Shown here piece after piece: positions 4,910-62,212 of a stretch of 64,000 nucleotides of DNA. The position numbers were made by a program, and so were the translations under genes. The stretch is from Chloroflexota bacterium. GTDB taxonomy: Bacteria > Chloroflexota > UBA11872 > VXOZ01. The stretch lies in the NCBI GenBank assembly GCA_965220175.1, contig OZ244814.1:2634630-2698629 (forward strand), read 5' to 3'. A model generated the notes under the pieces. It saw nothing but the letters and a program-made list of their open reading frames with translations. It was not told the origin of the DNA and made no database searches. The first letter of the stretch is position 1, and every line of letters begins with the position of its first letter.

Positions 4910-5880
4910 GTGATTTAGCCGTGGCAAGCGAACGTCCGCCAATCGGGAAACCTGCATCAGCCAAGCTGGCCGCCATTGCTGCCGTCGCTACGCGTTCGCT
5001 CTTAGGACTGAAACCCGCGTGGCACGAGCCCCTGGCCAAGCACACGTCGGTGCGGGTGGGAGGGCCGGCGGATCTGCTCATTCGTGTTCGCTCCCGGGAG
5101 GCCCTGCGTATCGTCGTGACAGAAGCCTACCGGCACGCGGTCCCGTTTCGGGTGATTGGAGACGGGACCAATCTCATAGCCGCCGAAGCGGGAGTCCGTG
5201 GGCTCGTAGTCAGAAACCATGGTGGAAACCGGGGCCAATGCGCCGATGAGGTCTCCATCTGGGCGGATGCGGGGTGCTCTCTGATTAGCACGGCGCGTTG
5301 GGCTGCCAGCCTTGGACTATCCGGCCTGGAGGGCGCGGCAACAATACCGGGAACCGTGGGTGGGGCGGCCGTGAACAATGCCGGAGCATATGGCTGGACG
5401 GCAGCCGATTCCGTTTCCCGCGTCAGGGCTCTCGACCGCCAGGGAGAGCGGTGGATCTATCCGGATGAAATGGCCTATGCATATCGAACAAGCACGATCA
5501 AGGAACGTCCCGGCTATGCTGTGGTTCTAGGCGCCGAACTCCGACTGACGCGAGGAGACCCGGATCGAATTCTGGGCACCATTCAGGAGCGGCTGCAGAC
5601 CCGTCAGCGCACGCAACCCACGGCTCCGAGTTCCGGCTCGGTCTTTCGCAATCCGCCCGGAATGAGTGCCTGGAAACTCATAGATGAGGCAGGGATGCGG
5701 GGAAGAATTATGGGAGGGGCGCACGTTTCCCGGCAACACGCCAACTTCATCGTCAACGACGGCCCGGCAAAGGCTGACGACGTTTACGGACTGATCCGAG
5801 CAATCGAACAAGCGGTCAAGCTCCACTCAGACGTAACGCTGCAGCGAGAAGTCGAACTCTTCGGAGAGTGGGAAATTTAA
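4906..5880 (+). CDS. murB: UDP-N-acetylenolpyruvoylglucosamine reductase
   Basis: 'VGGPAD', 'IGDGTNL', 'IPGTVGGAAVNNAGAYG', 'SSGSVFRNP', 'HANFIVN', 'LQREV'; 4-bp overlap with murC. Confidence 0.93.
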   Translation: MSDLAVASERPPIGKPASAKLAAIAAVATRSLLGLKPAWHEPLAKHTSVRVGGPADLLIRVRSREALRIVVTEAYRHAVPFRVIGDGTNLIAAEAGVRGLVVRNHGGNRGQCADEVSIWADAGCSLISTARWAASLGLSGLEGAATIPGTVGGAAVNNAGAYGWTAADSVSRVRALDRQGERWIYPDEMAYAYRTSTIKERPGYAVVLGAELRLTRGDPDRILGTIQERLQTRQRTQPTAPSSGSVFRNPPGMSAWKLIDEAGMRGRIMGGAHVSRQHANFIVNDGPAKADDVYGLIRAIEQAVKLHSDVTLQREVELFGEWEI

Positions 5881-9540: not shown

Positions 9541-11223
9541 TCACGAAGCGGGGATCACCGGCAAGAGAATGTGGGAAGGATACGCCTTGCTGTGGAACAC
9601 CGTCTGACGCGCCAGTTCCCAGCGATCCTCCAAGCCGTTGTTTTCTGCACCCGTATTGAGATTGCGGTCGAAACGCGGGAAGTTGCTTGACGAAATCTCA
9701 ACCCGGATTCGATGTCCCGCAAGAAAAACGTTGCCGATTACCCAGAGGTCAATCTCGTACTCGTACACTGTGCCGGGATCGATGAGTGACGACGATTCTC
9801 GTCCCTCGCGAAACCGCGCGCGCACTATGCCGTCGCAGAGGCTATTTGCACGACCGTCCAGATGGACATCTACCAGCTTGGCCGTCCAGTCCGTATCGGG
9901 CCGATCGCTGGCGGCGTAGAGCACCACCTTGATTGGGCCGGTCACCTCCACGTCTTCCACGAGCGGCTCGCTGGTATAGCACAATACGTCCTGGCGCATC
10001 TCGATATTCTGCTGGTCGTAGGGACCCCACGCTACAATGTGCGGCGAGCAGCAGTTGTTACCGCCAAGCGTTGGAACCGGCGCATTCGGGTCATACGTGT
10101 AGCTATCTGACGATTCGTCTCCGGGCACATCAATAGAGAGGCTGCCGTTACCATTCAACGTGTTGGCGGCCCCTTGCGAATGGAAATACCACTGCTGCCA
10201 GTCCGTACGCGCCAGCGGCCACTCGTGCTCGCTCCGCCACTCGTTGCGCCCCATGATGAAGAGCCGCAAAGGCGGTTCGTCGAGGATGCCGTTCTGCTCC
10301 CCCTTCAGCCAGTAATCGAACCAACGCAGTTCTTCCCCGTCTAGGTCAACCATTGAATCGGCGCCAAAGTCCACTTGACCCGTAACCCGCGAGGTTGAGA
10401 GCCCATGGGGCCACGCACCCATGATGAGTTGACTCTGCCGGGCTTCCTCCGATTTGCCACGAAGGCGGAGCTCGTTCCAGTTGTCGAACGTTGCCTTGGA
10501 GTAGAGGTCGAACCAGCCACCCATGTTGTACGCCGGCGCGACGACATGCTCCCAATGCTCGCTGTTGCTGGATGGCTTCCAGTAGTCGTCGTAGTGAGGA
10601 TGGCGGATCCAGTCTTTCCAAAAGTCTAGGTCACGGCCGATCTCAGTGGTGACGTCGGCCACGGGCAGCGTGCGAAAGACGCGTACCCAGTCCTCGTACT
10701 CAATGTTCTGGGCCGTGCGGCCGTGAGTCCGCGATCCCCAGGTAGCGAGAACGCCTAGCTGCAGAGCGCCATTTGTGTATCCCGGGGAGTCATAGAAATC
10801 GCATGGGGCGACGCGCGGCACGATACAGGTCAGATGCGGACTGCCGCGCCACGCCGCCGTCCACTGCGTGATGCCCAGGTAGGAACCACCCGCCATGCCA
10901 ATCTTGCCGGTACTCCAGGGCTGCTCTGCAACCCATTCCACCGTATCGTGGCCGTCGTCGGCTTCATTGCTAACCGGGTAGTAGGTGCCTTCAGAGTCCC
11001 ACCGGCCGCGCACGTCCTGGATCACCGCGGCATAGCCCTGGCTCGCCAGTTTACGCCCTTTTTCAATGTGAAGATCGGTGTTGTTGCCGTATGGCGTGCG
11101 CACGAGCACCGTTGGCGCCGGCTCTGCGTGCGGCGGCAAGAAAATGTCGGCCGATAGGGCCACGCCGTCCCGCATCGGCACTTTGGCATCAACCAGGGTC
11201 CGAATCTGTGACACGGTGCGCAC
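9541..11223 (-). CDS. CocE/NonD family alpha/beta hydrolase (acyl esterase / X-Pro dipeptidyl-peptidase-like)
   Basis: 'VPMRDGVALSADIF', 'RTPYG', 'QDVRGRWDSEG', nucleophile 'GGSYLG', C-terminal 'SSSNFPRFDRNLNTG'. Confidence 0.9.
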   Translation of the reverse strand: MRTVSQIRTLVDAKVPMRDGVALSADIFLPPHAEPAPTVLVRTPYGNNTDLHIEKGRKLASQGYAAVIQDVRGRWDSEGTYYPVSNEADDGHDTVEWVAEQPWSTGKIGMAGGSYLGITQWTAAWRGSPHLTCIVPRVAPCDFYDSPGYTNGALQLGVLATWGSRTHGRTAQNIEYEDWVRVFRTLPVADVTTEIGRDLDFWKDWIRHPHYDDYWKPSSNSEHWEHVVAPAYNMGGWFDLYSKATFDNWNELRLRGKSEEARQSQLIMGAWPHGLSTSRVTGQVDFGADSMVDLDGEELRWFDYWLKGEQNGILDEPPLRLFIMGRNEWRSEHEWPLARTDWQQWYFHSQGAANTLNGNGSLSIDVPGDESSDSYTYDPNAPVPTLGGNNCCSPHIVAWGPYDQQNIEMRQDVLCYTSEPLVEDVEVTGPIKVVLYAASDRPDTDWTAKLVDVHLDGRANSLCDGIVRARFREGRESSSLIDPGTVYEYEIDLWVIGNVFLAGHRIRVEISSSNFPRFDRNLNTGAENNGLEDRWELARQTVFHSKAYPSHILLPVIPAS

Positions 11224-43109: not shown

Positions 43110-44892
43110 GGGCAGTTCCGTCTCCGTTCGCGTCCCGGCTCGCTTCACGCGCCAGTGCGGCCATGCGCTCTTGGTCCCTGAGTTGAATGTCGTAAATGCG
43201 GGCGTAGAATCCTTTCCGTTGCACCAGTTCCTCGTGGGTACCCCGGTCGACAATGCGGCCCTCTTCCATGACGAGGATTAGGTCTGCTTCCTTGATGGTC
43301 GAGACACGCTGCGCCACGACGAGTCTCGTAGAGCTTTGGGCATAGTTCTTGAGACCCTCGTAGATCCGGTACTCCGTCTCCGTATCGACGCTGGCCGTCG
43401 CATCGTCCAGCATGATGATGGGACGCTGAAGGAGGAGCGTGCGCGCAAGCGCGGTGCGCTGCCGTTGACCGCCGGAGAGGCCGGCGCCGCGCTCGCCGAT
43501 GCGGTGTTGGTAACCATTGGGAAACTCCATGATGAAGTCATGGGCTTGAGCGGCCTTCGCCGCGGCGACAATCTCATCCATGCTCGCATCGGGGCGTCCG
43601 TAGGCAATATTGTTCGCCATGGTATCTGCAAACAGCATAGGCTCCTGCAGCGCGATACCAACCTGCTTCCGCAGCGAGTCCTGGGTGACATCCCGCACGT
43701 CGTGGCCGTCAATCTTGACCGAACCCGAGCGTACGTCATAGAAGCGGGCAATCATGTAGAGCAGTGTGCTCTTGCCGCTGCCGGTCGGCCCCACGATGGC
43801 GATCATCTTGCCCGGCGCGGTCTCCACGCTGATGTCTTCCAGCACGGCAAAGCCGCGCTCGTATTCAAACGTTACATCCCGCAGGACGACGTGACCCGTT
43901 ACCGGCGGCAGTTCGTGGGCGCCGGTCTGGTCGCGCACCGGTGAGCGCGTATCGAGAACACCGTAGTAGCGCTCGCCGCTGGTGATGCTCGTTGCAATGC
44001 TGTCCATTATTCCGGGGAGCTGCTGCGTCGGTCCTACGAGCATTTGGAAGTAGGCAACAAATGCCACCAGCGCTCCAATCGTGAGATCACCACTTATGAC
44101 AAGCCGCCCTCCCAACCACAGCACGATGACGATCCCAAGTACCGAGACCATGTTCATCAGTGGACCGAGCGTTGCATTCACGTTGACGGCCCGCATCATG
44201 AGGCGTACGAGTTCGCGTCCTTCTTTCTTGAACTTCTCCTGTTCATGCGTTTCCCGCACAAAGGCCTTCACCACGCGCGCACCGTTGATGGCTTCCTCCA
44301 AGGCAATAACCACCCGCTCGCGTTGCTGCCGGACCCATCCGTACGCAGGCCGAACCCGCTTGTTATAGAACCAGGAAATTACGCCCAAAATCGGGAGGAG
44401 CGGCAATGACCAGAGAGCCAGTTCGCCGCTAAGCCAGAACATGATGCCGAGCACGATAGAGTAGCGCAGAAACGTATCGAGCATATTGATAATGGCCTGG
44501 GTGCCAAAGCCCTGTATCAGCTCGATGTCGCTCAGGGCTACGGAGATCATCTCCCCGGCCTGAATTCTGTCGTGAAAGCCATAGGAGAGGTGTTGCAGGT
44601 GATCGTAGAGCTGCGCGCGCAAATCGTAGCCGGTCTTCTGTGAGGCGACGGCAGTGAAGAAGGCTTTGCCAAAGAGAAAGAGCGCGGCGAGTAGGGAAAC
44701 TGCCACGATGACGCCGCTCATGAACGCAATGTAGCGGAGATCGCCCGGCGTTAAGCCGTTGTCGATAACTTCCTTGAAGAGCGCGGGCGTGACGAGGCTC
44801 AAGACCGTGCTGGCTAGCCATGCACCGTACGCCAACAAGGCAGAGTTGCGGTGCCGAAATGTCGCGGCTATGAGGCGCTTGAGGATCTTCAT
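43102..44892 (-). CDS. Type IV ABC exporter half-transporter (TMD+NBD), partner subunit
   Basis: GPTGSGKST, LSGGQ, IMLDD, VAQR; overlaps the partner's start by 8 bp. Confidence 0.92.
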   Translation of the reverse strand: MKILKRLIAATFRHRNSALLAYGAWLASTVLSLVTPALFKEVIDNGLTPGDLRYIAFMSGVIVAVSLLAALFLFGKAFFTAVASQKTGYDLRAQLYDHLQHLSYGFHDRIQAGEMISVALSDIELIQGFGTQAIINMLDTFLRYSIVLGIMFWLSGELALWSLPLLPILGVISWFYNKRVRPAYGWVRQQRERVVIALEEAINGARVVKAFVRETHEQEKFKKEGRELVRLMMRAVNVNATLGPLMNMVSVLGIVIVLWLGGRLVISGDLTIGALVAFVAYFQMLVGPTQQLPGIMDSIATSITSGERYYGVLDTRSPVRDQTGAHELPPVTGHVVLRDVTFEYERGFAVLEDISVETAPGKMIAIVGPTGSGKSTLLYMIARFYDVRSGSVKIDGHDVRDVTQDSLRKQVGIALQEPMLFADTMANNIAYGRPDASMDEIVAAAKAAQAHDFIMEFPNGYQHRIGERGAGLSGGQRQRTALARTLLLQRPIIMLDDATASVDTETEYRIYEGLKNYAQSSTRLVVAQRVSTIKEADLILVMEEGRIVDRGTHEELVQRKGFYARIYDIQLRDQERMAALAREASRDANGDGTAHG

Positions 44893-49032: not shown

Positions 49033-49134
49033 CTCTTGGGCTAGTCAGGTGCTCGGATGTGGCAGAGCCGCAATGGCGTGCATCTTCGCCTCTGGTCGGT
49101 TAAAACTTAGCTCTGCGGAAGGTAGAGAATCAGC

Positions 49135-50481
49135 ATGCCCAAAGACCGCATGCTCAGCGTTGAAGAAGCGTTCGCGCGCATCGTCTCCCAGTTCTCCGTA
49201 CTTGAGGCGGAGACGGTTCCTCTGATGGATTCCCTCGGTCGCGTGCTGGCAGAGGATGTAGTCAGCGCCGAGGACGTTCCCGCGTTCGATAACTCGGCCA
49301 TGGACGGCTATGCCGTGCGTTTTGCCGATACGCAGACGGCGAGTGAGGGGCAGCCGGTGCACTTGCGGGTGGTCGGCGACCTGGCCGCCGGCGCCGTGCC
49401 GGACGCGCCGCTGGGATCCGGCGAGGCCGTGCGTATTATGACAGGCGCCCCGGTGCCACCGGGCAGCGACGCCGTGGTGCCGTTCGAGGATACCGACCGC
49501 ACGGATTGGGCGAAATTCGGCACGCCCCCCGGCGCGAGCGGCGATCCCGCCACCGTCGGCATTCTGCTGGCCCCTGAATTCCAGGACAACGTGCGCTTCC
49601 GTGCGGAAGACATCAAGACCGGCGAGACGGTGCTTACCCAGGGCAAGCGCATTCGCGCGGCGGAGATCGGCGTGATGGCTTCCCTCGGCAAGACCGAGGT
49701 GGCGGTCTACCGGCGGCCCGTGGTGGCTGTGATCCCCACCGGCGATGAGGTAATCGATATCGCTGAACCGCTGCAGCCCGGACAGGTCCGCAACAGCGCG
49801 GCCCATGCCTTGGAAGCGCTGGTAACCGTCTACGGCGGCATCCCGCGCCGCCTGCCGGTGGTCGGCGACTCCGTGGATGAGATTCGGCAGGCACTGCTTT
49901 CCTGCCATGACTGCGACCTCATCGTCACCATCGGCGGCGTTTCGATGGGCGATTACGACCTGGTGCGCAACGTGCTGGGCGCGGAAGGCGAAATTGACTT
50001 CTGGCGCATCCGCATGCGCCCCGGCAAGCCGCTGGCATTTGGTCACATCGAAGCAGTAGTCAGTGCGCACTCTTCCGTCATTCCCGCGAAAGCGGGAATC
50101 CATCTTTCATCCGATAGTCCAACCCGCCGCGTGCCCGTCGTCGGCCTGCCAGGCAATCCCGTCTCCGCTTATGTCACCTTTGAGGAATTCGTCCGTCCGG
50201 CGCTCCTCGTCATGCAGGGGCACACCCACCTCCACAAGACCACCGTCAAAGCCCGCTTCCTCGACAGCATGGAGAATCACGGGAGGCGCCAATTCGTGCG
50301 CGTCGTCGTGGAGCGCGACGACCACGGCTATACCGCGCGGCTCACCGGCGAGCAGGGCTCGCAACTGCTTACGTCCCTTGCCAAAGCCAATGGCCTCGCC
50401 ATCATCTCTGAGCACACAGATTATGTCGAGCCCGGCAGCGAGGTCACCGTGCAGATGCTCGACTGGCCGGAAGAGGGGTGA
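49135..50481 (+). CDS. moeA: Molybdopterin molybdotransferase with an in-frame repeat-derived insertion
   Basis: 'GRVLAEDV', 'SAMDGYAV', 'IMTGAPVP', 'TGDEV', 'GGVSMGDYD', 'RPGKP', 'GLPGNPVSA'. Confidence 0.95.
   Translation: MPKDRMLSVEEAFARIVSQFSVLEAETVPLMDSLGRVLAEDVVSAEDVPAFDNSAMDGYAVRFADTQTASEGQPVHLRVVGDLAAGAVPDAPLGSGEAVRIMTGAPVPPGSDAVVPFEDTDRTDWAKFGTPPGASGDPATVGILLAPEFQDNVRFRAEDIKTGETVLTQGKRIRAAEIGVMASLGKTEVAVYRRPVVAVIPTGDEVIDIAEPLQPGQVRNSAAHALEALVTVYGGIPRRLPVVGDSVDEIRQALLSCHDCDLIVTIGGVSMGDYDLVRNVLGAEGEIDFWRIRMRPGKPLAFGHIEAVVSAHSSVIPAKAGIHLSSDSPTRRVPVVGLPGNPVSAYVTFEEFVRPALLVMQGHTHLHKTTVKARFLDSMENHGRRQFVRVVVERDDHGYTARLTGEQGSQLLTSLAKANGLAIISEHTDYVEPGSEVTVQMLDWPEEG
50073..50106 (+). repeat. 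CGTC-tagged palindromic REP (dRS3-like) inside moeA
   Basis: TTCCGTCATTCCCGCGAAAGCGGGAATCCATCTT; 8-bp stem, GAAA loop; 34/34 identical to the reverse complement of 59793..59826. Confidence 0.9.
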
Positions 50482-50624
50482 TGAGGCAAGGCTGGGAGTG
50501 TTCCAGCGCGTGAGCTCTTGGGAATCACTGCTCGCTCGAAAGCCTTGTCGTTTGAAATTGTCTTCCTTCCCGGCAATTGGTACAGTTTGTAATGGCTATG
50601 GAAGCGCTCCCATGAAAGCGGAGA

Positions 50625-50876
50625 ATTGCAATAGCGGTATTCGATTCACACACAGGACGTATGAAGCACTGAAGGCGGGAGGCCTTTCAAATTCGCAGGC
50701 AAAGATCTTACATGATGCCCTACGGTGAATCGAACGAGTCGCTGGCAACCAAAGCAGACATAGTCGCCGTAAGGGCGGATCTCCGAGAGCTAGAGTTGCG
50801 CATGCGGCTGCATTTCTATGGGGTAGCCATTGTGGTAGTTGGCATCTTGGCTGCTTTGGAGTTGTTGCCGATCTAG
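50625..50876 (+). pseudogene. Decayed DUF1640/CCDC90-like coiled-coil membrane protein gene
   Basis: Three pieces in shifted frames: 'AVFDSH' / 'RTYEALKAGGLSNSQAKILHDAL' / 'NESLATKADIVAVRADLRELELRMRLHFYGVAIVVVGILAALELLPI*'; no ATG. Confidence 0.65.
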
Positions 50877-59609: not shown

Positions 59610-59685
59610 TGGTACGCCTGGAGGGATTCGAACCCCCGACCCTCGGTTCCGAAGACCGATGCTCTGTCCACTGAGCTACAGGCGC
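59610..59685 (-). tRNA. tRNA-Arg (anticodon TCG)
   Basis: Cloverleaf GCGCCTG-TA-GCTC AGTGGACA GAGC-A-TCGGT CT-TCG-GA ACCGA-GGGTC-GGGGG TTCGAAT CCCTC-CAGGCGT-A-CCA; CCA encoded. Confidence 0.97.
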
Positions 59686-59754
59686 AGGTGGGCGCTTTGC
59701 GAAGAAAGCGATAGAGCCGCCTGATTAATTATAGCAGGCGAGCGCGCAAGTCCT

Positions 59755-59826
59755 GTCACTCCGGCGGATGCCGGAGTCCAGGGCACGCGGAGAAGATGGA
59801 TTCCCGCTTTCGCGGGAATGACGGAA
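59755..59826. repeat. Inverted REP dimer (BIME-like) of CGTC-type palindromes
   Basis: GTCACTCCGGCGGATGCCGGAGTCCAG (59755-59781) followed by the inverted ATGGATTCCCGCTTTCGCGGGAATGACGG. Confidence 0.8.
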
Positions 59827-59963: not shown

Positions 59964-61232
59964 CTACGGCCGGTTAACGGTGCCGTCGGCGCGGCGCAGG
60001 GGCGCCCAGCCGCCGCCATACGGCATTTCCGGCAAGGGGAATCGCGCCGCCAGCTCTTCGTCGAGATCTATGCCGAGGCCGGGGCGTTCATTCGACCACA
60101 TCGCGCCGTCGCGGATCTCCGGCGTGCCGGGAAATGTGTCCTGCGCGGCCTGGTTGAACCTGTGCTGCTCCTGAATGCCAAAATTGTGGCAGGCAAAATC
60201 CAGATGCATGTTGGCTGCGTGTCCCACCGGCGAAACGTCGGCCGGTCCGTGCCAAGCCGTGCGCACGCCGTAGAATTCGCAGAAGGCGGCCAGTTTGCGT
60301 GCCATCGAAATGCCGCCGATGTCGGAGATGTGGACCCGTATGAAGTCGATGAGCCGTTCCTGAATCAGGGGCACATACTCGGCTTGGTTGACGAAGAGTT
60401 CGCCCATGGCGATGGGAGTCGTGGTCTGCTGGCGCATGATGCGAAAGTAGGCGTTGTCCTCCGGCGCCAGCGGGTCTTCCAAGAAGAAGAGATTATAGGG
60501 TTCAAGTGCTTTCGCCAGTCCAAGCGCCTGGATGGGCGGGATGCGCTCGTGCACGTCGTGGATCAACTCCACGCTGTCGCCCAACTGGTTGCGCAGGTGC
60601 TCGAAAAGCCGGGGCAGTTGCCGCACGTACGGTGTCGGCTCCCAGTAGCCCTCCAAAACGCCGTGATCCACTTCGAAAGCCTCTCCACCAGATTTGCCGG
60701 CACTCTCGCCTTGAGACGGGCGCTTCCAACCCGTGGCGTTGCTACCGGCACTGTAGGACCTAAATCCCGGCTCGCTCGTCGAACACTTAACGTAGCGGTA
60801 TCCCTGCTCCATAGCCGCGCGCACGGACTCTTCCGCCGCGTGCACATCTTCGCCGCCAGCGGAGGTATAGAGCGGTACGAATTCCCGGCACTTGCCGCCA
60901 AGAAGCTGGTACAGGGGCATGTTTGCACACTTGCCCTTTATGTCCCACAGCGCCGCATCCACGCCCGCCAGGGCGTTATTCAACACCGGACCGCTCCGCC
61001 AGTAGGAATTCACGTAGGACGACTGCCAGATGTCCTCGATGGCGGACGGGTCTTTGCCGACGAGGAAAGGGCGCAGGTATTCGTTTACCGCCGTTACAAC
61101 GGTCAGGGGCCGCTGCCTGAATGTGGCACAACCCACCCCGTGGAGGCCGGGCGTGCTCGTCTCGATCTTGACGACGACTAGCGCAAGGCCGGCCGGCGCG
61201 GTGCAGATGGCGCGAACGTTGGTGATGCGCAT
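59964..61232 (-). CDS. rspA: Enolase superfamily dehydratase (RspA/ManD mannonate dehydratase-like)
   Basis: 'YVNSYWRSGPV', 'ALWDIKGK', 'HDVHER', 'FFLEDP', 'MGE', 'WHGP.DVSPVG'. Confidence 0.88.
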   Translation of the reverse strand: MRITNVRAICTAPAGLALVVVKIETSTPGLHGVGCATFRQRPLTVVTAVNEYLRPFLVGKDPSAIEDIWQSSYVNSYWRSGPVLNNALAGVDAALWDIKGKCANMPLYQLLGGKCREFVPLYTSAGGEDVHAAEESVRAAMEQGYRYVKCSTSEPGFRSYSAGSNATGWKRPSQGESAGKSGGEAFEVDHGVLEGYWEPTPYVRQLPRLFEHLRNQLGDSVELIHDVHERIPPIQALGLAKALEPYNLFFLEDPLAPEDNAYFRIMRQQTTTPIAMGELFVNQAEYVPLIQERLIDFIRVHISDIGGISMARKLAAFCEFYGVRTAWHGPADVSPVGHAANMHLDFACHNFGIQEQHRFNQAAQDTFPGTPEIRDGAMWSNERPGLGIDLDEELAARFPLPEMPYGGGWAPLRRADGTVNRP

Positions 61233-61312
61233 GGTATTCCATCCTTTGACACTATTCCGTAGACGCGCCGCGAAGTGCGGCGGCCCGATTGCACACAGGT
61301 TCTCAACTGCCG

Positions 61313-62212
61313 CTAAAAGGCCAAATGCAGCACCCGATCGAATCCGGCAAGATCGCGATAGACGGACACGCGGGCGCCAGGGGCGAGACGCCAAGCAAGC
61401 TCCCGCAGTGATGCCGCCATGTCAAAACCAATCTCGAAGAAGGCATGACCGCCAGGCGGAAGATAGACTTGCAGAAAAGGGAACATCGAGCGGTAAGCGA
61501 TGAGCCCATCGTTCCCGCCGGACAATGCGACGGTCGGCTCATAGTCACGCACGTCGCGATCAAGACTCGGAATCTCACTTTCCGGGATATACGGCGGATT
61601 GCACACGATCACTTCCATTGGTTTCGGCAGCGCTGTCAAGTGATTCCCCAGCGAGAACACCATCCTATCCGCTACCTCGTGGGAAGCGGCGTTCCTTTGC
61701 GCTACTTCCAGCGCGTCGGCAGACACATCTGTAGCGTACACGGTGGCATGGGGGAGGTATTTTGCAATGCTAACGCCAATTGCGCCGCTACCGGTACCGA
61801 CGTCGGCAATGAGCGGATGCGACCCATTGCCTTGTTTAGACACTCTGGGGACGCCTGTCACAGGGCTACGAACAAAGAGATTTAGCACCTTCTCAACTAA
61901 GAGTTCCGTTTCAGGTCGCGGAATAAGCACCCTGCAGTCCACTGCGAACTCGAGGCCCATGAACTCTCGGCAGCCTGTGATGTAGGCGATGGGTTCACGC
62001 TCCTGGCGGCGCGCGATCAGCTGGCTAAACTCGGTTACCTCCTTGTCCGAGAGTGCAGCGATGCGCTCACCGGCAAGGTCTTCTTCACTACAGTCCAGCA
62101 CGTGCCTCAGTAGGATTCGGGACTCGCGAACGTAAGAGTCTAATCCGAAAGCTCTGAGTTGCTCCGCTCCCCAACGGAGAGCATCTCTCAAACCTGGCGA
62201 GGTGAGTGACAT
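61313..62212 (-). CDS. prmC: Release factor glutamine methyltransferase
   Basis: 'EPIAYITG.REF.GL', 'LIPRPETE', 'DVGTGSG', NPPY. Confidence 0.95.
   Translation of the reverse strand: MSLTSPGLRDALRWGAEQLRAFGLDSYVRESRILLRHVLDCSEEDLAGERIAALSDKEVTEFSQLIARRQEREPIAYITGCREFMGLEFAVDCRVLIPRPETELLVEKVLNLFVRSPVTGVPRVSKQGNGSHPLIADVGTGSGAIGVSIAKYLPHATVYATDVSADALEVAQRNAASHEVADRMVFSLGNHLTALPKPMEVIVCNPPYIPESEIPSLDRDVRDYEPTVALSGGNDGLIAYRSMFPFLQVYLPPGGHAFFEIGFDMAASLRELAWRLAPGARVSVYRDLAGFDRVLHLAF

Follow-up and report, generated by a model that had tools for sequence, protein, structure and literature searches.

A CGTC-1-type REP element read in frame within moeA of Chloroflexota marks a probably ancestral insertion at a variable loop

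A palindromic repeat of the CGTC-1 class of repetitive extragenic palindromic (REP) elements is read in frame within moeA, the gene for molybdopterin molybdotransferase, in the Chloroflexota DNA analyzed here, a stretch of 64,000 nucleotides (nt) from contig OZ244814.1 (hereafter, the window; positions count from its first base). We consider it likely that the element is an ancestral insertion which was tolerated as a protein loop, later turned its site unstable, and had its hairpin kept by a process acting on nucleic acid. Chloroflexota and moeA thereby join the phyla and genes in which palindromic repeats are known to be translated. The central idea of a first-pass annotation of the window, that repeat DNA has been turned into protein sequence here, is borne out: a seemingly dispersed palindromic repeat is read in frame within an extra loop.

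A CGTC-1 element encodes 11 residues of MoeA

The moeA gene occupies 49135..50481 on the plus strand and encodes 448 amino acids (aa) in an intact reading frame; it was identified from the list of open reading frames (ORFs), Pfam, and sequence and fold matches in the PDB. Pfam found MoeA_N, MoCF_biosynth, and MoeA_C in the product (E = 4e-51, 2e-28, and 5e-17, respectively). Its top sequence matches among solved structures were E. coli MoeA, the gephyrin E domain, and Cnx1E (E ~1e-61), and the PGKP and GLPGNPVS motifs of MoeA are kept across the homologue alignment. To judge from its sequence, the product has the architecture of MoeA, with three domains plus both motifs.

The element itself lies at 50074..50106 on the plus strand and spans 33 nt, or 11 codons, read as SVIPAKAGIHL (residues 314 to 324). 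It comprises an unpaired CGTC head (50076-50079), the stem arm ATTCCCGC (50080-50087), a GAAA loop (50088-50091), the stem arm GCGGGAAT (50092-50099), and a CCA tail (50100-50102), all on the plus strand. The boundaries of the 33-nt unit were taken from the loose ends in a contig pile-up, which fall at 50070-50075 and 50104-50107 (415 to 640 contigs per run). Positions 50073-50106 (TTCCGTCATTCCCGCGAAAGCGGGAATCCATCTT) are the reverse complement of 59793-59826, identical at 34 of 34 bases, as the first-pass annotation had read them. The dRS3 consensus of Neisseria, ATTCCC-N8-GGGAAT, which had also been proposed for the element, has exactly two matches in the 64 kb, where 0.03 would be expected, and none of 100 shuffles contained it twice.

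CGTC REPs have been defined by an unpaired CGTC head (sometimes TGTC or CCTC), an 8- to 9-bp stem starting from A/T pairs, a 4- to 5-nt loop, and a CCA tail, with an 8-bp stem and a 4-nt loop marking the CGTC-1 family (Di Nocera, De Gregorio and Rocco 2013, BMC Genomics 14:522, PMC3733652). The moeA element has every one of the CGTC-1 features: the head, an 8-bp stem starting with AT, the 4-nt loop, and the CCA tail. It resembles the units described there in near-identical sequence as well, in Azospirillum, sphingomonads, and Neisseria. As CGTC-1 units are equated in that survey with dRS3 of Neisseria and RPE-6 of Rickettsia conorii (PMC3733652), the analogies with dRS3 and with Rickettsia palindromic elements drawn at first pass both hold, as analogies within one family.

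Folded as DNA, the hairpin has eight pairs, a 4-nt loop, and a free energy of -9.0 kcal/mol (z = -3.9), and it is present in both the minimum free energy and the centroid RNA folds. GAAA and GCAA loops are of the GNRA type, and d(GCGAAAGC) hairpins are unusually stable. The 96-nt insert region folded as RNA was no better than its shuffles overall (z = -0.41), and we thus claim no larger RNA structure. Rfam gave no match at the moeA copy or the intergenic copy, and inspection of the sequence at the moeA hairpin showed no T-run for termination. Five of the six frames of the element are open (VIPAKAGI, SFPRKRES, HSRESGNP, DSRFRGND, and WIPAFAGM); a TGA interrupts the remaining one.

The insert is predicted to form the tip of a beta-hairpin

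Alignment with 45 homologues and comparison of the loop DNA of 10 genomes place a lineage-specific insert at residues 304 to 330 (HIEAVVSAHSSVIPAKAGIHLSSDSPT; 50044..50124, plus strand), between GKPLAFG and RRVPVVGLPGNP. From PGKPLAFG to GLPGNP, the window protein has 33 residues versus 8 (QVHGTPVI) in orthologues at 46 to 53% identity. The net gain of 25 aa is at the upper end of the 20 to 25 aa first suggested for an in-frame, repeat-bearing insertion. The palindromic element had been drawn over 50044-50130; there is an insertion there, but only 33 to 34 nt of the 75 to 87 nt of extra loop sequence belong to the shared repeat. The rest of the extra sequence has no second copy within the window. 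Relative to E. coli MoeA, residues 306 to 335 are without counterpart, the aligned blocks being residues 6 to 305 and 336 to 440 of the window protein.

We mapped the insertion onto an AlphaFold2 model of the window MoeA, built from a 46-sequence alignment with a mean predicted local distance difference test score (pLDDT) of 69.9. The fold of the model matches gephyrin E, Cnx1E, and E. coli MoeA (E ~1e-34). Beta-strands at residues 299 to 307 and 331 to 338 frame residues 309 to 329, for which pLDDT falls below 50. In this model the insert is predicted to be a disordered surface loop at the tip of the domain III beta-hairpin that joins PGKP and GLPGNPVS. Such a tip would tolerate added residues as a disordered surface loop, and MoeA could have stayed under purifying selection as a result. 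Across six orthologues, 84% of first, 89% of second, and 34% of third codon positions in the moeA core are invariant, which argues that the protein is under purifying selection despite the loop.

The insertion is shared by close relatives

The nearest genomes (L001 to L005) are Chloroflexota metagenome-assembled genomes (MAGs) with complete chromosomes of 2.6 to 3.6 Mb and 81 to 88% aa identity; the sequencing runs and more distant relatives stem from sponge metagenomes. About 40 MoeA orthologues at 72 to 92% aa identity are 442 to 572 aa long, and the difference in length is confined to one loop. Between GKPLAFG and RRVPVVGLPGNP, this loop has 21 to 151 residues (63 to 453 nt), and it carries repeat-derived sequence in all of them. 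The Chloroflexota orthologues at 46 to 53% identity have a plain 8-residue turn (PGKPLAFG-QVHGTPVI-GLPGNP), and their ~20-kb flanks yielded no copy of the repeat. Since relatives free of the repeat carry only the short turn and not the same loop, a repeat origin of the loop is favored.

We compared the loop DNA in ten genomes. The 3'-most unit is orthologous: an identical 27-mer, GTCATTCCCGCGAAAGCGGGAATCCAT (variant A1), is found in six genomes with 82 to 86% core nucleotide identity, exactly 21 nt before the RR codons. L084 has variant A2 (ATTCCGGC GCAA GCCGGAAT) at the orthologous site, 18 nt before the RR codons, with a compensatory change in the stem. L003, L004, and L083 retain a decayed remnant of the hairpin, with loop and gene still intact. 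Because the insertion is orthologous in all ~40 close relatives, with the same 21-nt spacing to the RR codons in the six genomes where variant A1 is intact, it predates species-level divergence. Taken together, the comparisons indicate that the moeA insertion is real but old. A 33-nt CGTC-1 REP would have entered moeA in frame, at the beta-hairpin tip, in the common ancestor of a sponge-associated Chloroflexota clade.

We also considered microhomology at the target site between the native motif CCCGTCATCGG of uninserted orthologues and the element (CCGTCATTCC). This candidate was dropped, as the native motif lies ~30 nt away from the element where a gene has the insert and has not been kept in L007 or L008.

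The identity of the two window copies reflects conservation of the family

The second copy of the repeat (59793..59826, minus strand) is intergenic and inverted with respect to the one in moeA. It makes up the right half of a tail-to-tail dimer, with GACG at 59820-59823 being the head read on the other strand. The left-hand unit is a variant REP (59754..59780, plus strand) with a TGTC head (59754-59757), the stem ACTCCGGC/GCCGGAGT, a GGAT loop, and a CCA tail (59778-59780); its stem covaries with the A1 stem. The dimer (59754-59826) lies between the 5' side of a tRNA-Arg(TCG) gene (59610..59685, minus strand; ARAGORN and Rfam) and the stop codon of an enolase-superfamily gene (59964-61394, minus strand; Pfam MR_MLE).

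The first-pass annotation had taken the perfect identity of the two copies as a sign of recent mobility, that is, of a young insertion of an active element into moeA. Two observations could be cited for this explanation. Seven flanking bases beyond the 27-nt core are common to both window copies, while none of 135 metagenome copies shares both flanks. In addition, hundreds of near-identical 33-mers occur in the same sample, and the subfamily may have been active in that community. We nevertheless consider a recent jump into moeA very unlikely, as all close relatives have the moeA copy at the orthologous site and six genomes do not differ at any of its 27 nt. The intergenic dimer is likewise not confined to this genome. 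L001 has an orthologous dimer by the same tRNA, where ~190 nt from the tRNA through both hairpins are nearly identical and the similarity to the window breaks off exactly at the second unit's head (the 59793-59826 copy). No dimer was found near tRNA-Arg in L002 and L005, which makes the intergenic dimer younger than the moeA copy. The seven shared bases indicate a lineage-specific 33- to 34-nt subfamily and not a recent jump into moeA.

The identity of the copies is explained by the extreme conservation of the family: at least 120 unrelated metagenome contigs, which come from soil, sludge, peat, freshwater, and ocean and have GC contents of 34 to 70%, carry the 27-mer without a mismatch. Matches of 90 to 97% to the element were found in Azospirillum, sphingomonads, Neisseria, Photobacterium, and a Microcystis phage, and N. 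gonorrhoeae records contain at least 40 places ~91% identical to the 34-mer. In the source sample, the 33-mer is present in 415 to 640 contigs per run at a summed depth of 13,000 to 58,000, compared to 18 to 36 for the flanks. This sample is a mixed holobiont metagenome. The window itself holds two strict copies and one variant in 64 kb.

A 97% copy lies within an annotated ileS on Sphingopyxis indica plasmid pMC4 (NZ_CP076395.1, 30814-30844; L205), ~300 nt from the 3' end. The 274-kb cyanophage MaAM05 of Microcystis (MW495066.1) has four places ~90% identical to the 34-mer, e.g., 44587-44617. Long "ORFs" over metagenome copies (L089, L115, L155, L189, and L133) were not counted as genes, as they resemble Arg-rich antisense artifacts.

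The loop appears to be a hot spot across the lineage

The loops of the relatives carry CGTC-1 hairpins, of which at most two are intact, as many as four BoxC hairpins, and units that are degenerate or halved. Among the latter are 27-nt half-units (ASGSVIPxx), and Gly-Ser-Pro tracts are found as well. The second kind of hairpin is CCCTCTCC-CTGG-GGAGAGGG followed by CCAGGGTGAGGGG and reads PSPWGEGQGEG. This repeat, e.g., CCCTCTCCCTGGGGAGAGGGCCAGGGTGAGGGG in L003, fits CCCTCNCCC-N-GGGNGAGGG-N3-GGGNGAGGG, the first spacer being 2 nt on a strict reading, and it matches BoxC-type loci at 94% in more than 4,000 E. coli genomes. The translated BoxC/PIT/TMECO-type motifs lie in frame in moeA of L001 (10991-11023), L003 (~11003-11035), L004 (10946-11026), L005 (11108-11140), and L083 (~1333-1505), where they form a 60-nt tandem array. 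A pattern scan did not find the motif in the window; it was seen only in the moeA loops of relatives.

Tandem Repeats Finder reported a 27-nt period repeated 5.4 times in L082 and a 60-nt period repeated 2.9 times in L083, both multiples of three, and nothing in the window. The nearest relatives differ by a module between direct CGTC-1 units, as P0002 has the form A and P0001 the form A-B-A. Unequal recombination or slippage is expected to leave such a pattern, and it implies that the single-unit form of the window, among the shortest of the loops, may have been cut back secondarily from something like the A-B-A form seen in its nearest relative. The strict element was absent outside moeA in all 75 other moeA-centered loci. 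In ~100 kb flanking moeA in L001 to L005, there are only two loose or degenerate copies, apart from the tRNA-Arg dimer of L001. On these comparisons, the loop site is a lineage-wide hot spot that has seen more than one event.

As a model for these events, the resident repeat may have destabilized the site, with relatives gaining more CGTC-1 units and BoxC/PIT triplex-type repeats. Units would then have been duplicated or deleted via slippage or unequal recombination between direct copies, and only length variants in multiples of three would have survived. Across the ~40 orthologues, this one site can be seen at many stages, with a single unit in some and A-B-A modules, tandem expansions, or decay in others.

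The two longest loops, P0011 and P0036 (L081, ~4920-5010), have collagen-like Gly-Ser/Thr-Pro tracts (GSPGNPGTPGSPGSPG...) between the repeat units.

The hairpin shares one phase and is conserved beyond coding needs

In all moeA loops, all hairpins of both kinds have one orientation and start at codon position 1. We rejected a general frame preference of the element as the cause, since confirmed host proteins elsewhere use other frames: the 27-mer is read as DSRFRGND in an Lhr-type helicase and in a MeaB-mutase linker and as HSRESGNP in HsdR. Because real proteins read the same 27-mer in other frames, the single phase is a property of the moeA locus. Duplication within the locus, or templated replacement, starting from a single founder would fit this phase better than a series of independent insertions.

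All 27 hairpin bases are invariant in six genomes, including nine third positions (P ~5e-5 for the third positions alone). The state of the hairpin is bimodal, either perfect or strongly decayed, and the surrounding loop is hypervariable. With only 34% of third positions invariant in moeA, this implies that something acting on nucleic acid, and not protein function, maintains the hairpin. Homogenization against, or replacement by, the many other genomic copies is the most likely process, and it would have kept the hairpin nucleotides in most lineages.

The chief alternative, above all for the hairpin, is that the loop could have been selected for a function, as a disordered tether or interaction surface in the protein or as a GNRA-type hairpin that tunes translation, mRNA stability, or replication. 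This would account for the conservation at synonymous sites and for variant A2 in L084, which preserves pairing (ATTCCGGC/GCCGGAAT, GCAA loop) through a compensatory change. The loop is also kept in all ~40 orthologues, with no reversion to the short turn, and the presence of the hairpin in both RNA folds points in the same direction. A selected peptide is harder to reconcile with a loop of 21 to 151 aa and variable content in which no peptide is conserved except the repeat. Three lineages have a decayed hairpin and yet an intact gene, and the same 27-mer is found in unrelated proteins and in intergenic DNA. Together with the poor fold of the 96-nt region (z = -0.41) and the lack of a T-run for termination, these findings leave selected function an improbable explanation, and we prefer an old insertion whose hairpin is maintained as nucleic acid.

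The in-frame copies of the 27-mer noted above are in L183 (Lhr-type helicase), L191 (linker of a MeaB-methylmalonyl-CoA-mutase fusion), and L181 (EcoEI_R_C domain of a type I restriction R subunit). In the moeA core, one 33-nt run outside the hairpin is invariant in six genomes; the next longest run is 17 nt.

Independent assemblies carry the same arrangement

An assembly artifact, in which the palindrome was introduced or misplaced at a repeat, would have some basis in the short reads. Logan short-read contigs of four runs of the source sample (X1 to X4) cover 49700-50099 and 50079-50500, and the contigs of all four runs end within the palindrome (50079-50099), with none spanning it. The element therefore appears to fragment k-mer assemblies of this community. 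Nonetheless, the flanking contigs overlap by 21 nt without variants, and the reading frame is preserved. The same moeA arrangement is found in independent assemblies from other samples, including the complete MAG chromosomes L001, L002, and L005, and in ~40 database proteins. We regard an artifact as barely credible, and the insertion as real.

The moeA calls P0040 to P0049 and P0052 are truncated or frameshifted within the repeat tract, switching to RHSRESGNP or SFPRKRES. Sequencing errors or pseudogenes could account for these calls; in both cases the repeat tract is hazardous for assembly and gene calling. In practical terms, the element breaks short-read assemblies, seeds spurious antisense ORFs (MDSRFRGNDG...), and coincides with frameshifted calls in public MAGs.

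Comparison with known repeat families

In-frame intragenic copies of CGTC REPs have been documented, including clusters that encode 43 to 82 aa (PMC3733652), and the moeA element thus does not represent a new class. New are the host phylum and the host gene, the history of a single codon-phased site throughout a clade, the translated BoxC-type motif in relatives, and the conservation of the hairpin beyond coding needs. Chloroflexi are not among the five phyla for which CGTC repeats are listed in the main survey, which makes Chloroflexota a new host phylum for the class as far as that list extends (PMC3733652). Likewise, moeA is not among the host genes in its main text; here, one site is occupied clade-wide with inserts of up to 151 aa. 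Head-to-head dimers predominate among the CGTC REPs described there (PMC3733652), whereas the one dimer of the window is tail-to-tail (n = 1).

The known families share some but not all of these features. Neisseria dRS3 elements are found in RS arrays and serve as integration sites of Nf prophages. The moeA element has the dRS3 consensus but lies in a Chloroflexota MAG lineage, with no prophage or array adjoining either copy, the neighbors being ordinary metabolic genes. We therefore file it under the wider CGTC-1 class and not under dRS3.

Rickettsia palindromic elements, reportedly described by Ogata et al. in 2000, are said to be palindromic repeats in frame in housekeeping genes, the classical RPE-1 being ~100 to 150 bp. 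The moeA case is similar in that a palindromic repeat is in frame in a gene under purifying selection, uninserted orthologues exist, and the insert would, according to the model, be exposed at the surface of the protein. It differs in the size of the unit (33 nt) and in the host, which is a free-living or sponge-associated member of the Chloroflexota and not an obligate intracellular alphaproteobacterium.

REPIN/RAYT systems comprise GTAG-headed REPs moved by Y1 transposases. The CGTC class resembles them in its short hairpin repeats, which commonly pair up as dimers and are scattered through a genome with little sequence variation. The head of the moeA element is CGTC and not GTAG, however, and no transposase or REP-associated tyrosine transposase (RAYT) gene was seen next to the moeA copy or the intergenic copy when the flanking genes were inspected. 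The genes flanking the two copies encode an aldehyde dehydrogenase, an MR/MLE enolase-superfamily protein, an ABC ATPase, SBP_bac_5, and PrmC. According to the same survey, CGTC REPs have no known RAYT partner, and no enzyme that mobilizes them is known (PMC3733652).

The BoxC/PIT/TMECO motif has the intrastrand-triplex consensus CCCTCNCCC-N3-6-GGGNGAGGG-N3-GGGNGAGGG; in E. coli MG1655 it is always intergenic and is linked to locally variable regions (Holder et al. 2015, Nucleic Acids Research 43:10126, PMC4666352). The moeA loops of the relatives show the local variability associated with the motif in that work. They differ in that the motif is translated and that its first spacer is 2 nt rather than the N3-6 of the consensus.

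Several points weigh against an ancestral insertion that became a hot spot with a homogenized hairpin. The confidence of the MoeA model is only moderate (mean pLDDT, 69.9). Given the shared orientation and phase, with three of the five open frames confirmed in proteins elsewhere, calling the site a "hot spot for insertion" may go too far where the CGTC units are concerned. The conservation at the nucleotide level could reflect a function of the hairpin rather than homogenization. Moreover, there are only two or three copies in 64 kb; the high count was obtained from a mixed metagenome and is not assignable to this genome. The insertion step itself is conjectural, as no enzyme is known to move such REPs (PMC3733652) and the genes next to the two copies include none.

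A bolder proposal is that the MoeA tip acts as a self-perpetuating "repeat trap," in which a CGTC-1 REP and a BoxC/PIT motif are maintained or re-templated in coding DNA by a sequence-specific process, such as a CGTC-REP mobilizing enzyme or directed gene conversion. We hold this idea to be doubtful. If true, the occupied, expanded, and decayed orthologous sites would be a natural experiment for finding the machinery, and this would be the first translated BoxC-type triplex motif. The ancestral insertion that we favor already offers a tractable system for how CGTC REPs without a known transposase persist and how much disorder a loop of an essential enzyme can absorb.

Additional reading frames at the moeA locus

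A 352-aa antisense ORF runs over moeA at 49045-50103 (minus strand), and its start ATG lies within the hairpin (MDSRFRGNDG...). It resembles the spurious annotation ORFs seeded by CGTC-family REPs. Directly 3' of moeA, all four of the loci L081 to L084 have a gene of 53 aa with no Pfam match (e.g., L084, 6427-6588). A 54-aa ORF at 50712-50876 of the window is a possible counterpart of this gene.

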